Virus record (IMG/VR): IMGVR_UViG_2651869782_000024
DNA length: 6,524 nucleotides
Origin: a virus
Lineage: Duplodnaviria > Heunggongvirae > Uroviricota > Caudoviricetes
Strand: one strand, 5' to 3'
This document shows, piece by piece, positions 1 through 6,524 of the stretch. The stretch's first letter is position 1. Every line of letters starts with the position of its first letter. The notes under the pieces are model-generated. The model was not told where the DNA came from, did not search any database, and saw only the letters and a program-made list of their open reading frames with translations. The translations under genes and the position numbers were made by a program.

Positions 1-39
1 GAAGTCGCTGTCGTTCTCAAAATCGGTGGAGCTGCATGA
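1..39 (+). CDS. 3' end of an upstream gene, possibly a tail assembly protein I homologue by synteny (partial; frame uncertain)
   Basis: Frame 1 reads ...EVAVVLKIGGAA then TGA at 37..39. Frame 2 is also open from position 2 to a TAA at 80..82, so the true frame cannot be fixed from 39 nt. Assignment rests only on position immediately upstream of J in a lambda-type tail cluster. Confidence 0.25.
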   Translation, partial: EVAVVLKIGGAA

Positions 40-297
40 CAAAGTCATCGGGCATTATCTGAACATAAAACACTATCAATAAGTTGGAGTCATTACCTAA
101 CATCCCTTCCTATTGAGAATGGGGTAAGCCTTTTAGTTCCACAGGCTATGGGGGGATATGATGTTGTGCTTGATATCAAAAAAGCAGGAAATGGCAGTAG
201 TTTTACTCTTTATGAACGTGTACCAGCATTAACGCCAAAAATTTTTGCTGATAGTGTTAATGCATGTAAATAATAGTTAATCCTGTCGTAACTCATG

Positions 298-325
298 AGC
301 CGCCTTTTGGGCGGCTTTGTTGTTT
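298..325 (+). terminator. Putative rho-independent terminator immediately upstream of the J ribosome-binding site
   Basis: Perfect 7-bp inverted repeat AGCCGCC (298..304) / GGCGGCT (310..316) with loop TTTTG, followed by TTGTTGTTT (317..325). The reverse complement has no downstream T-tract, so it is + strand only. GGAG at 328..331 lies 8 nt before the J ATG. Confidence 0.45.
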
Positions 326-339
326 ATGGAGTGTGAGGA

Positions 340-3300
340 ATGGGTAAAGGAAGCAGTAAGGGGCATACCCCGCGCGAAGCGAGGGACAACCTGAAGTCCA
401 CGCAGCTGCTGAGTGTGATCGATGCCATCAGCGAAGGGCCGGTTGAAGGTCCGGTGGACGGATTAAAAAGCGTGCTGCTGAACAGTACGCCGGTGCTGGA
501 CAGTGAGGGGAATACCAATATATCCGGTGTCACGGTGGTGTTCCGGGCAGGTGAGCAGGAGCAGACACCGCCGGAGGGATTTGAATCCTCCGGCTCCGAG
601 ACGGTGCTGGGTACGGAAGTGAAATATGACACGCCGATCACCCGGACCATCACGTCGGCAAACATCGACCGTCTGCGCTTTACCTTCGGTGTGCAGGCAC
701 TGGTGGAAACCACCTCAAAGGGGGACAGGAATCCGTCGGAAGTCCGCCTGCTGGTTCAGATCCAGCGTAACGGTGGCTGGGTGACGGAAAAAGACATCAC
801 CATTAAGGGCAAAACCACCTCGCAGTATCTGGCCTCGGTGGTGGTGGATAACCTGCCGCCGCGCCCGTTTAATATCCGGATGCGCAGAATGACGCCGGAC
901 AGCACCACAGACCAGCTGCAGAACAAAACGCTCTGGTCGTCATACACCGAAATCATCGATGTGAAACAGTGCTACCCGAACACGGCACTGGTCGGCGTGC
1001 AGGTGGACTCGGAACAGTTCGGCAGCCAGCAGGTGAGCCGTAATTATCATCTTCGCGGGCGCATTCTGCAGGTGCCGTCGAACTATAACCCGCAGACGCG
1101 GCAATACAGCGGTATCTGGGACGGAACGTTTAAGCCAGCATACAGCAACAACATGGCCTGGTGTCTGTGGGATATGCTGACCCATCCGCGCTACGGCATG
1201 GGGAAGCGTCTCGGTGCGGCGGATGTGGACAAATGGGCGCTGTATGTCATCGGCCAGAATTGCGACCAGTCGGTGCCGGATGGCTTTGGTGGCACGGAGC
1301 CGCGCATCACCTGTAATGCCTACCTGACCACACAGCGCAAGGCGTGGGATGTTCTCAGTGATTTCTGCTCGGCGATGCGCTGTATGCCGGTATGGAACGG
1401 GCAGACGCTGACGTTCGTGCAGGACCGACCGTCGGATAAGGTGTGGACCTATAACCGCAGTAATGTGGTGATGCCGGATGATGGCGCGCCGTTCCGCTAC
1501 AGCTTCAGTGCCCTGAAGGACCGTCATAATGCCGTTGAGGTGAACTGGATTGACCCGGATAACGGCTGGGAGACGGCGACAGAGCTTGTTGAAGATACGC
1601 AGGCCATTGCCCGTTACGGTCGTAACGTCACGAAGATGGATGCCTTTGGCTGTACCAGCCGGGGGCAGGCGCACCGCGCCGGGCTGTGGCTGATTAAAAC
1701 GGAACTGCTGGAAACGCAGACCGTGGACTTCAGCGTGGGTGCGGAAGGGCTTCGCCATGTACCGGGGGATGTCATTGAAATCTGCGATGATGACTATGCG
1801 GGTATCAGCACCGGCGGGCGCGTGCTGGCGGTGAACAGCCAGACCCGGACGCTGACGCTCGACCGTGAAATCACGCTGCCATCCTCCGGTACCACGCTGA
1901 TAAGCCTGGTTGACGGTCAGGGTAATCCGGTCAGCGTGGAGGTCCAGTCCGTCACCGACGGCGTGAAGGTGAAAGTGAGCCGTGTTCCTGACGGCGTTGC
2001 AGAATACAGCGTGTGGGGGCTGAAGCTGCCGACGCTGCGCCAGCGCCTGTTCCGCTGCGTGAGTATCCGTGAGAACGATGACGGCACGTATGCCATCACC
2101 GCCGTGCAGCATGTACCGGAGAAAGAAGCCATCGTGGATAACGGGGCGCACTTTGACGGTGACCAGAGCGGCACGGTGAATGGTGTCACGCCGCCAGCAG
2201 TGCAGCACCTGACCGCCGAAGTCACTGCAGACAGCGGGGAATATCAGGTGCTGGCGCGATGGGACACACCGAAGGTGGTGAAGGGCGTGAGCTTCCTGCT
2301 CCGTCTGACCGTAACAGCGGACGACGGCAGTGAGCGACTGGTCAGCACGGCCCGGACGACGGAAACCACATACCGCTTCACGCAACTGGCGCTGGGGAAC
2401 TACAGGCTGACAGTCCGGGCGGTAAATGCCCGGGGGCAGCAGGGCGATCCGGCGTCGGTATCGTTCCGGATTGCCGCACCGGCAGCACCGTCGAGGATTG
2501 AGCTGACGCCGGGCTATTTTCAGATAACCGCCACGCCGCATCTTGCTGTTTATGACCCGACGGTACAGTTTGAGTTCTGGTTCTCGGAAAAGCGGATTAC
2601 CGATATCAGGCAGGTTGAAACCACAGCCCGCTATCTTGGTACGGCGCTGTACTGGATAGCCGCCAGTATCAATATCAAACCGGGCCATGATTATTATTTT
2701 TACGTTCGCAGTGTGAACACCGTTGGCAAATCGGCATCCGTGGAGGCTGTCGGTCGGGCGAGCGATGATGCGGAAGGTTACCTGGATTTTTTCAAAGGAG
2801 AAATCGGGAAAACACATCTGGCCCAGGAGTTGTGGACGCAGATTGATAACGGTCAGCTTGCGCCGGACCTGGCTGAAATCAGGACGTCCATTACGAATGT
2901 CAGCAATGAAATCACGCAGACCGTCAATAAAAAACTGGAAGACCAGAGTGCGGCAATCCAGCAGATACAGAAAGTTCAGGTTGATACAAATAATAACCTG
3001 AACAGCATGTGGGCCGTGAAACTGCAGCAGATGAAGGACGGACGCCTTTATATTGCGGGTATCGGAGCCGGTATTGAGAATACGCCAGCAGGTATGCAGA
3101 GTCAGGTGCTTCTGGCTGCTGACCGGATTGCGATGATTAATCCTGCGAATGGCAACACAAAGCCGATGTTTGTTGGTCAGGGCGATCAGATATTCATGAA
3201 CGACGTGTTCCTGAAACGCCTGACGGCTCCGACCATTACCAGCGGCGGTAATCCTCCGGCATTTTCCCTGACACCGGACGGGCGGCTGACGGCGAAAAAT

Positions 3301-3819
3301 GCCGATATCAGCGGTAACGTGAATGCGAACTCCGGGACGCTCAACAACGTCACGATTAACGAGAACTGTCGGGTTCTGGGAAAATTGTCCGCCAACCAGA
3401 TTGAAGGCGATCTCGTTAAAACAGTGGGCAAAGCTTTCCCCCGGGACTCCCGTGCACCGGAACGGTGGCCATCAGGGACCATCACCGTCAGGGTTTATGA
3501 CGATCAGCCGTTTGACCGGCAGATTGTTATTCCGGCGGTGGCATTCAGCGGCGCTAAACATGAGCGGGAGAATAACGATATTTATTCGTCATGCCGCCTG
3601 ATAGTACGGAAAAACGGTGCTGAAATTTATAACCGTACCGCGCTGGATAATACGCTGATTTACAGTGGTGTTATTGATATGCCAGCTGGTCGCGGCCACA
3701 TGACGCTGGAGTTTTCGGTGTCAGCATGGCTGGTGAATAACTGGTATCCCACAGCAAGTATCAGCGATTTGCTGGTTGTGGTGATGAAGAAAGCCACCGC
3801 AGGCATCAGTATCAGCTGA
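340..3819 (+). CDS. J: Host specificity protein J (tail tip / central tail fibre), 1159 aa
   Basis: Complete ORF from the six-frame track. N-terminus [34 protein letters not shown]... and most of the length match phage lambda gpJ as I recall it. Position upstream of lom and stf matches lambda gene order. Shine-Dalgarno GGAG at 328..331. Confidence 0.95.
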
Positions 3820-3886: not shown

Positions 3887-4486
3887 ATGCGTAAAGTTTG
3901 TGCAGTCATTTTGTCCGCAGCCATCTGTCTGTCCGTATCCGGTGCGCCTGCATGGGCGTCTGAACATCAGTCCACACTGAGCGCGGGGTATCTTCATGCC
4001 CGTACGAACGCTCCCGGCAGCGATAATCTGAACGGGATTAACGTGAAATACCGTTATGAGTTTACGGACGCGCTGGGGCTGATTACGTCCTTCAGTTATG
4101 CCAATGCTGAGGATGAGCAAAAAACGCACTACAGCGATACCCGCTGGCATGAAGATTCCGTGCGTAACCGCTGGTTCAGCGTGATGGCGGGGCCGTCTGT
4201 ACGCGTGAATGAATGGTTCAGCGCGTATTCGATGGCGGGTGTGGCTTACAGCCGTGTGTCGACTTTCTCCGGGGATTATCTCCGCGTAACTGACAACAAG
4301 GGGAAAACGCACGATGTGCTGACCGGAAGTGATGACGGTCGCCACAGCAACACGTCTCTGGCGTGGGGGGCTGGCGTGCAGTTTAACCCGACCGAATCCG
4401 TGACCATTGACCTTGCTTATGAAGGTTCCGGTAGTGGCGACTGGCGAACGGATGCATTTATTGTTGGTATCGGATACCGTTTCTGA
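3887..4486 (+). CDS. lom: Lom-family outer membrane protein (Ail/Lom/OmpX/PagC/Rck 8-strand beta-barrel family), 199 aa
   Basis: Complete ORF. N-terminal signal peptide MRKVCAVILSAAICLSVSGAPAWA with likely cleavage after AWA. Conserved family motifs GINVKYRYE, SVMAGP, AYEGSGSGDWRTD and a C-terminal ...GIGYRF ending in Phe, typical of outer-membrane beta-barrels. Shine-Dalgarno GAGAGG at 3876..3881, 5 nt before the ATG. Sits between J and stf as in lambda. Confidence 0.9.
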   Translation: MRKVCAVILSAAICLSVSGAPAWASEHQSTLSAGYLHARTNAPGSDNLNGINVKYRYEFTDALGLITSFSYANAEDEQKTHYSDTRWHEDSVRNRWFSVMAGPSVRVNEWFSAYSMAGVAYSRVSTFSGDYLRVTDNKGKTHDVLTGSDDGRHSNTSLAWGAGVQFNPTESVTIDLAYEGSGSGDWRTDAFIVGIGYRF

Positions 4487-4637: not shown

Positions 4638-6524
4638 ATGACAGTAAAAATTTCTGGCGTGCTTAAAGATGGCACAGGAAAACCAGTACAGAACTGCACC
4701 ATTGTGCTGAAGGCCAGACGAACCAGCAGCACGGTGGTGGTGAACACGGTGGCCTCTGAAAATCCGGATGAAGCCGGACGTTACAGCATGGATGTTGAGC
4801 ATGGTCAGTACAGCGTCACCCTGCTGGTTGAAGGTTTTCCGCCTTCACATGCCGGGACCATTACCGTCTATGAAGGTTCCAGACCAGGTACGCTGAATGA
4901 TTTTCTCGGTGCCATGACGGAGGATGATGTCCGACCGGAGGCACTGCGCCGCTTTGAGCAGATGGTGGAAGAGGTGTCACGTAACGCCTCCGCGGTTGCA
5001 CAGAATACGGCAGCCGCGAAAAAATCAGCCAGCGATGCCAGTGCATCAGCCAGCGAGGCGGCAACTCATGCAACCGATGCTGCAGCCTCAGCACGTGCCG
5101 CCAGCACGTCAGCCGGACAGGCCGCGTCGTCGGCTCAGTCAGCGTCTTCCAGCGCAGGAACGGCATCGACAAAGGCCCGTGAAGCAGCAAAAAGTGCTGC
5201 TGCTGCAGAGTCATCAAAAAGCGCGGCAGCTACCAGCGCCAGTGCCGCGAAAACGTCAGAAACGAATGCCGCAGCGTCACAACAATCAGCAGCCACTTCT
5301 GCATCCACCGCGACCACGAAAGCGTCAGAAGCAGCCACTTCAGCACGGGATGCGTCGGCTTCAAAAGAGGCGGCAAAATCATCAGAAACGAACGCAGCCT
5401 CGAGCGCCAGCAGCGCAGCTTCCTCGGCAACGGCGGCAGCAAATTCTGCGAAGGCGGCAAAAACGTCCGAGACGAACGCCAGGTCTTCTGAAACGGCAGC
5501 GGGACAGAGCGCCTCAGCTGCGGCAGACTCAAAAACAGCGGCTGCATTATCTGCCAGTGCCGCGTCAACAAGTGCCGGGCAGGCCTCAGCCAGTGCCACC
5601 GCCGCCGGAAAATCGGCAGAAAGCGCCGCATCATCCGCTTCAACAGCCACAACGAAGGCTGGCAAAGCCACTGAGCAAGCCACTGCAGCAGCGAGGTCTG
5701 CTTCTGCAGCAAAAACCTCTGAAACAAATGCAAAGACTTCAGCAGACAATGCTGCTTCCTCTAAGGCGGCAGCCGCATCGTCAGCCAGTTCAGCGGCGTC
5801 ATCGGCATCATCTGCGTCTGCTTCAAAAGATGAGGCGACCAGACAGGCGTCAGCAGCAAAGGGCAGCGCCACGACGGCATCCACGAAGGCGACAGAGGCA
5901 GCTGGCAGTGCGACGGCGGCAGCTCAGAGCAAAAGTACGGCGGAATCCGCGGCAACGCGCGCCGAGACAGCGGCAAAACGGGCAGAGGATATTGCATCCG
6001 CCGTGGCGCTTGAGGATGCGAGCACGACGAAAAAGGGGATAGTACAGCTCAGCAGTGCGACCAACAGCACTTCCGAGTCACTGGCGGCAACGCCAAAAGC
6101 GGTTAAGGCGGTAATGGGTGAAACGAACAAGAAAGCGCCCTTAAATAGTCCTGCACTGACCGGAACGCCAACAACACCAACTGCGCGACAGGGAACGAAT
6201 AATACCCAAATCGCAAGCACGGCTTATGTTATGGCTGCGATCGCTGCCCTCGTGGACTCGTCGCCTGACGCACTGAATACGCTGAACGAGCTGGCTGCGG
6301 CGTTGGGCAACGACCCGAATTTTGCGACCACCATGACTAGCGCGCTTGCGGGTAAGCAACCGAAAGATGCCACCCTGACGGCGCTGGCCGGGCTTGCTAC
6401 TGCGGCAGACAGGTTTCCGTATTTTACGGGGAATGATGTTGCCAGTCTGGCAACCCTGACAAAAGTTGGGCGGGATATTCTTGCGAAATCGACCGTTGCC
6501 GCCGTTATCGAATACCTCGGTTTA
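4638..6524 (+). CDS. stf: Side tail fibre protein Stf, N-terminal 629 codons (3' end beyond window)
   Basis: ATG at 4638 preceded by GGTGG (4627..4631). I translated the frame by hand and it is open for all 629 codons to the window edge, which is why the track (which needs a stop) does not list it. N-terminus MTVKISGVLKDGTGKPVQNCTI... and the later ...DALNTLNELAAALGNDP...GKQPKDATLTALAG... segment match lambda Stf (orf-401 region) as I recall it. Confidence 0.9.
   Translation, partial: MTVKISGVLKDGTGKPVQNCTIVLKARRTSSTVVVNTVASENPDEAGRYSMDVEHGQYSVTLLVEGFPPSHAGTITVYEGSRPGTLNDFLGAMTEDDVRPEALRRFEQMVEEVSRNASAVAQNTAAAKKSASDASASASEAATHATDAAASARAASTSAGQAASSAQSASSSAGTASTKAREAAKSAAAAESSKSAAATSASAAKTSETNAAASQQSAATSASTATTKASEAATSARDASASKEAAKSSETNAASSASSAASSATAAANSAKAAKTSETNARSSETAAGQSASAAADSKTAAALSASAASTSAGQASASATAAGKSAESAASSASTATTKAGKATEQATAAARSASAAKTSETNAKTSADNAASSKAAAASSASSAASSASSASASKDEATRQASAAKGSATTASTKATEAAGSATAAAQSKSTAESAATRAETAAKRAEDIASAVALEDASTTKKGIVQLSSATNSTSESLAATPKAVKAVMGETNKKAPLNSPALTGTPTTPTARQGTNNTQIASTAYVMAAIAALVDSSPDALNTLNELAAALGNDPNFATTMTSALAGKQPKDATLTALAGLATAADRFPYFTGNDVASLATLTKVGRDILAKSTVAAVIEYLGL
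4998..5984 (+). repeat. Uninterrupted array of 47 heptads (21-nt period) encoding an Ala/Ser-rich probable coiled-coil shaft within Stf
   Basis: Translating the stf frame in 7-residue blocks from 4998 gives AQNTAAA, KKSASDA, SASASEA ... KTSETNA ... ETAAKRA with Ala at position 7 in all 47 blocks and Ser at position 3 in most. KTSETNA/KSSETNA recurs at 5250, 5376, 5460 and 5712, spacings that are all multiples of 42 nt. Confidence 0.75.

Follow-up and report, generated by a model that had tools for sequence, protein, structure and literature searches.

The window analyzed here is the whole of draft contig JHRV01000078.1, 6524 nt in length and flanked by repeats, with an IS1 element at the left and an Ala/Ser-rich tail-fibre gene at the right. 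On the plus strand, the gene for the tail tip/host specificity protein J (340..3819; 1159 aa, 84% identical to lambda J) is preceded by a ribosome-binding region (GGAG..GAGG, 326..339) that is conserved with lambda. Divergence from lambda J is sharp in two parts of the protein: one starts near residue 820, at a 23-residue insertion, and the other is the receptor-binding region formed by the last 150 residues. Because of this divergence, the receptor recognized may be different from lambda's LamB. Directly after J comes a gene encoding an outer-membrane (OM) beta-barrel protein of the Ail/Lom family (3887..4486, 199 aa), at the classic lambda lom moron site. The last gene, encoding a side tail fibre (stf-like, PF08400 phage_tail_N; 4638..6524), runs off the end of the contig. 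In a sister assembly this fibre is 968 aa long. It carries a long Ala/Ser/Thr-rich low-complexity region, which gives rise to long but spurious ORFs, both in alternative frames and on the opposite strand (e.g. 5135..5884, minus), and which probably also caused the assembly to break there.

Upstream of J, the original prediction had described an AT-rich spacer of about 260 bp, lying between the stop codon of an upstream gene and J, and containing two weak candidates for small genes. The low-GC stretch is present: GC is 0.372 over 40..297 versus 0.569 for J, or 37% against 57% in round figures. In the GC profile of the whole contig, only 0.16% of all 258-bp segments are equally AT-rich, and the minimum lies at position 36. 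Both ORFs are also found, one on the plus strand (148..273, 41 aa) and one on the minus strand (210..296, 28 aa). The labels attached to the segment did not hold, since positions 40..97 are IS1 DNA and 98..273 are coding sequence of a truncated gene. The presumed upstream stop at 37..39 is a TGA in an unused frame; the true upstream frame is that of the IS1 gene insB, ending at 80..82. Lambda gene I is thus ruled out as the upstream gene, the first 97 nt of the window being IS1 instead.

The IS1 sequence at 1..97 (plus strand) is the right end of the element, so that the contig begins inside it, and 94 of its 97 positions align to the annotated IS1 end of strain 3045. The 3' end of the transposase gene insB occupies 2..82 on the plus strand, with its TAA at 80..82. 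A public gene call of 26 aa on the same contig (2..82) matches PF03400 (DDE_Tnp_IS1), and the IS1 family transposase CDS of strain 3045 ends at the equivalent position. The terminal inverted repeat lies at 75..97; its reverse complement, GGTAATGACTCCAACTTATTGAT, is the IS1 right inverted repeat (IRR). The 1..97 segment has a median of 11 matching places per E. coli genome. Similarity to IS1 stops exactly at 97, and identity to the target gene starts at 98. The left end of the element lies outside the contig, leaving only one end within the window. A simple IS1 insertion at this point would be expected to leave an 8-9 bp duplication, TAACATCC(C). At the left flank, the event could have been either a simple insertion or an IS1-mediated deletion such as that in strain 3045, both being compatible with one visible end.

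Starting at 98, the window matches the prophages of UTI89, APEC O1, S88, O104:H4 and many other strains at 100% identity, as it does the sister assembly. In these prophages, the intact counterpart is a 339-nt gene between those for tail assembly protein I and J, its product being a RefSeq 'hypothetical protein' (WP_001332187.1). The 112-aa translation of the UTI89 gene is MNKTILFCTIIALTGCKSLDYVKSGKPVMEGNSLKNIDELSGCISRQWAGNGTPITSLPIENGVSLLVPQAMGGYDVVLDIKKAGNGSSFTLYERVPALTPKIFADSVNACK. It has a signal peptide and a lipobox, MNKTILFCTIIALTG|C, in which G15 and C16 are invariant among 15 homologues. The 176 nt at 98..273 on the plus strand comprise two nt of codon 55, codons 56-112 and the stop codon at 271..273. 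Having lost its start codon and signal peptide together with the lipobox Cys16 and Cys43, the remnant is unable to yield the lipoprotein and is best considered a pseudogene. The segment ahead of J is therefore very probably a composite scar, in which an IS1 end is joined to the surviving 3' half of a prophage lipoprotein gene. This is ordinary mobile-element damage, involving a known element and a prophage gene that is catalogued but uncharacterized, and the apparent anomaly of a long AT-rich "I-J gap" is explained away as an IS1 end plus a gene fragment. The original prediction had allowed that its spacer might turn out to lie inside a gene whose frame had been mis-assigned, and this is what was found, in modified form.

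The same comparison bears on the two small ORFs. The plus-strand ORF is in a real coding frame; it is not a small gene of its own, corresponding instead to residues 72-112 of the 112-aa lipoprotein cut by IS1. It is conceivable that either this ORF or the one on the minus strand is a genuine small gene, given that both are open with ATG starts, that the equivalent 41-codon CDS of strain 3045 is annotated by RefSeq as a 'hypothetical protein' (WP_000509652.1), and that a single promoter-like site is found on the minus strand (270..241). We regard this as very improbable. The 41-aa ORF starts at an internal Met of the longer protein with no Shine-Dalgarno sequence ahead of it (ccacaggctATG), in 331 genomes these bases belong to the reading frame of the longer gene, and in the AlphaFold model the 41-aa product would have two of the four sheet strands (beta 3-4) plus the last helix but lack the rest of the fold. 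The ORF on the minus strand runs antisense to this conserved gene and is without support; its one promoter-like site compares with 0.7 expected from shuffled sequences, which is equal to chance. For annotation purposes, 98..273 is better labeled as a pseudogene remnant than as a 41-aa hypothetical protein.

In UTI89, the intact insert is 435 bp long with 33.6% GC, compared to about 20 bp at the corresponding site in lambda. Its left limit is the I stop codon and its right limit the pre-J hairpin, and the sequence on either side is homologous to lambda. Its GC content of 0.336 contrasts with 0.566 for gene I and 0.581 for the 1.5 kb downstream, and it is absent from lambda, PhiR40_1 and Tritos. 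The idea that DNA had been inserted at the I-J boundary was thus correct in so far as intact relatives carry this extra low-GC DNA in place of the short lambda gap, and incorrect for 40..97, which is IS1 DNA. A nucleotide search against phages had been proposed as a check. By blastn, 95..335 gave no match to phage nucleotide sequences, and the segment was found instead in E. coli prophages: among 5426 complete genomes of this species, 337 carry it, and 331 have it at full length, including UTI89, O104:H4 and APEC O1. A tblastn search of phage genomes identified homologues in Fraca and LMessi only, at ~30% identity; among deposited phage genomes, the gene is rare. Scanning one-genome-per-species contigs for the exact junction, a set in which E. 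coli and Shigella together have one representative, found nothing.

On these features the intact gene is a moron-like low-GC insert, with expression from the prophage independent of the late genes being putative. No consensus promoter passed the scan upstream of the intact gene, and the best site in a relaxed scan had 8 of 12 sigma-70 matches in AT-rich DNA. For the Klebsiella homologue, the upstream gap is just 32 nt.

On the 3' side of the remnant, a short AT-rich untranslated end of 23 nt (274..296, plus strand) forms the right edge of the moron, and lambda-type I-J homology resumes right after it. The hairpin with its T-rich tail occupies 297..325 on the plus strand and resembles an intrinsic terminator: a GC-rich stem of nine pairs (297..317) is followed by TGTTGTTTAT. 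The terminator-like hairpin that had been predicted ahead of the J ribosome-binding site is therefore present, with the J start at 340. However, homologous hairpins occur in the 60-bp I-J gaps of lambda (15445..15504), PhiR40_1 and Tritos, all of which are without the lipoprotein gene. The lambda hairpin is AAACCGCC-TGC-GGGCGGTTT, and in the comparison of I-J gaps, one double change from G-C to A-T keeps the pairing. Because the lambda I-J gap has a homologous hairpin, the structure is not specific to the insert and is ancestral to the I-J site, which argues against a terminator imported by the insert at this site. In the Q-antiterminated late operon, candidate roles for the hairpin are as a terminator, as an mRNA stabilizer, or as a scar or docking site for morons.

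With its AT-rich stretch ending in a terminator-like hairpin just ahead of the J ribosome-binding site, the segment could also be thought of as regulating J expression without coding for protein, either as a spacer or as a small RNA, an option raised in the original prediction. An Rfam search gave a single, sub-threshold match, to GcvB, spanning 100..325 (E 0.055). At 19.6 bits, this match is far under the gathering score of 42, and we dismissed it as chance. The fold of 270..345 has a z-score of -1.8, which is due entirely to the hairpin, and lambda has the hairpin without this segment. Moreover, 40..97 is IS1, and 98..273 matches the 3' half of a protein-coding gene at 100% identity. Throughout the Enterobacteriaceae, the encoded protein is conserved at the level of 50-60% identity, with invariant residues and a confident fold. 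A regulatory or small-RNA reading is accordingly extremely improbable.

The composite-scar reading suggests the following history. A lambda-like prophage would have gained a low-GC accessory gene (moron) encoding the 112-aa lipoprotein, between the I stop codon and the pre-J hairpin. IS1 would then have transposed into the middle of this gene, at codon 55. As the contig breaks inside the multi-copy IS1, what is visible is the 97-nt IS1 end, the 3' half of the gene (98..273) with the 23-nt trailer, and the ancestral hairpin with the J translation signals, these last being untouched. The lipoprotein gene is intact in a sister assembly of the same project whose J protein is identical, which suggests that the disruption in this strain was recent. 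That observation could be turned around, however, as the window is a short draft contig with repeats at both ends: the IS1 junction could be an assembly artefact in a strain that keeps the whole lipoprotein gene. We find this highly unlikely. IS1 gives way to the target gene precisely where its inverted repeat ends, as in a true insertion, and in a third assembly, in which the J protein is also identical, the contig begins 2 nt from the same point. In addition, complete genomes have real IS insertions within 50 bp of the junction.

Taken together with the window, at least four independent IS events, three involving IS1 and one IS3, fall within a 90-bp stretch of the 339-bp gene. Numbered on the 481-nt UTI89 query (L001:3765-4245), the IS1 of the window is at position 237. 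In GN05476, an IS3 element with a 3-bp duplication is found at positions 238-240, only 1-3 bp from the IS1 junction of the window, and 24AR0376 has an IS1 in the opposite orientation with an 8-bp duplication, AGCCTTTT. The IS1 in strain 3045 lies 49 bp upstream of the window junction, and its far side abuts exo-xis-int, which implies a large deletion in that prophage. There, the lipoprotein remnant is linked directly through IS1 to exo, xis and int, which are encoded on the opposite strand. Assuming the standard lambda gene order, the early genes through gene I have mostly been deleted in this strain, and what persists is a cryptic remnant with J, lom and the fibre genes. Behind the recurrent hits could be a local hot spot for insertion, in AT-rich DNA, or else selection that has repeatedly favored loss of the gene. 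IS1 prefers AT-rich targets, and this preference, together with dispensability of the gene for the prophage, suffices to explain the recurrence.

The intact UTI89 protein has a single PHROG match, to PHROG 914, a family of unknown function (E 7.3e-33, residues 1-112 against positions 1-118 of the 118 in the profile); of these residues, the window keeps only 56-112. A word-indexed search and an exhaustive profile search yielded ~122 clusters at 50% identity, nearly all of them 90-150 aa, with named members in Escherichia, Klebsiella, Enterobacter, Kluyvera and Jejubacter. Among 15 sequences, G15, C16, S18, K35, C43, S45, S57, P59, G63, G74 and V78 are invariant, and C111 is nearly so. For the intact protein there was no Pfam match at E<=1, no PDB sequence match, no PADLOC family at E<=1, and in NCBIfam only a signal-peptide-level match to VirB7; Pfam searches with ten distant relatives returned nothing. 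Literature searches with the accession, and with combinations of lipoprotein, moron and IS1, found no paper on the lipoprotein gene. The AlphaFold model of the intact protein (pLDDT 83.7) consists of a helix, a strand, a long helix, a four-stranded antiparallel sheet and a C-terminal helix. Its top structural matches were generic, with DUF302, KA1 domains and the BamC N-terminal domain at similar scores, and a weak match to an Flpp3-like fold was among the structural matches listed. The BFVD match was to a single uncharacterized Pseudomonas phage protein.

The family is not confined to one gene boundary. Homologues were found between I and J in E. coli, between K and I in Klebsiella prophages and phage Fraca, immediately upstream of an I-like gene on a metagenomic contig, and, in Enterobacter, between the genes for tail chaperone T and the tape measure. 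Wherever flanking sequence was available, the homologue was lower in GC than its flanks. In all five contexts examined, the gene is followed on its 3' side by a GC hairpin and T-run just ahead of the next ribosome-binding site, with the next gene starting within about 20 nt. As this hairpin follows every homologue examined, the cassette may travel with it. Several homologues have a similar TTTATGGAG/TTTATGGGG stretch ahead of the start of the next gene. The lipoprotein family is thus mobile between the gene boundaries of the tail module in Enterobacteriaceae prophages, including those of UTI89, APEC O1 and the O104:H4 outbreak strains.

As for function, the lipobox (L-x-G-C) is followed by Lys at position +2 rather than Asp, the residue that directs retention in the inner membrane. 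On this basis, we infer that the intact product is an OM-anchored periplasmic lipoprotein. The conserved Cys43 and Cys111 probably form a disulfide. By analogy with other small phage lipoproteins (Cor, Llp and Bor), the likeliest role would be modification of the envelope, for example by receptor masking, superinfection exclusion or the shielding of released virions from debris.

Set against known systems, the left part of the scar is that of IS1 insertions generally (InsAB' transposase): the terminal 97 nt with the 3' end of insB and the IRR, a junction at the exact end of the element and an AT-rich target are all as expected, as are the 8-bp duplication in 24AR0376 and the adjacent deletion in strain 3045. 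One end is visible in the window, and nothing about it is unusual. The intact insert resembles the morons of lambdoid phages, in the sense of the Hendrix/Juhala concept, of which lambda lom and bor and HK97 gene 15 are examples. Like these, it is a low-GC gene between conserved late genes, missing from close relatives, with a terminator-like hairpin after it, varied boundaries across phages and a predicted envelope protein as its product. It differs in that the hairpin at the I-J site is also present in phages without the gene, and in that a promoter of its own is only putative here. With respect to fold, the comparison with Flpp3/DUF3568 of Francisella tularensis, at 6-9% identity, gives no sequence-level relation, and the fold class is very common.

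Among phage lipoproteins, lambda Bor, like the Iss serum-resistance lipoprotein, is also a prophage-encoded lipoprotein moron of ~100 aa in lambdoid phages. However, bor occupies a different locus, by the lysis genes, and an hhalign comparison with lambda Bor gave a probability of 13%, confined to the signal peptide, with no match to Pfam Lambda_Bor. The Cor proteins of phi80, N15 and HK022 and Llp of T5 share with the present protein a small size, a lipobox signal peptide and predicted OM sorting, as well as a location within or beside the tail/receptor-binding gene cluster. The likeness does not extend to sequence or profile past the signal peptide: hhalign against the Cor of phage Fraca gave a probability of 2.6%, through the signal peptide only, and the listed fold matches include neither Llp nor Cor structures. 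In Fraca, the lipoprotein homologue lies between K and the I-like gene (5725..6336), adjoining another small hypothetical gene, and a separate cor superinfection-exclusion gene is annotated downstream of J (11579..11812). Since Fraca has both genes, the lipoprotein homologue and Cor are not simple alternatives. We would offer, as a tentative and rather doubtful proposal by analogy, that PHROG 914 is a new, unrelated family of OM lipoproteins from siphovirus tail modules which mask or alter receptors as Cor and Llp do, whether to keep out superinfecting phages or to spare progeny from debris, and that the IS hits reflect a cost of carrying the gene. If receptor masking or envelope modification proves to be its role, the family would be one more on the short list of phage lipoproteins of this kind, and natural IS-disrupted alleles, such as the one in the window, would be ready-made controls, in effect natural knock-outs.
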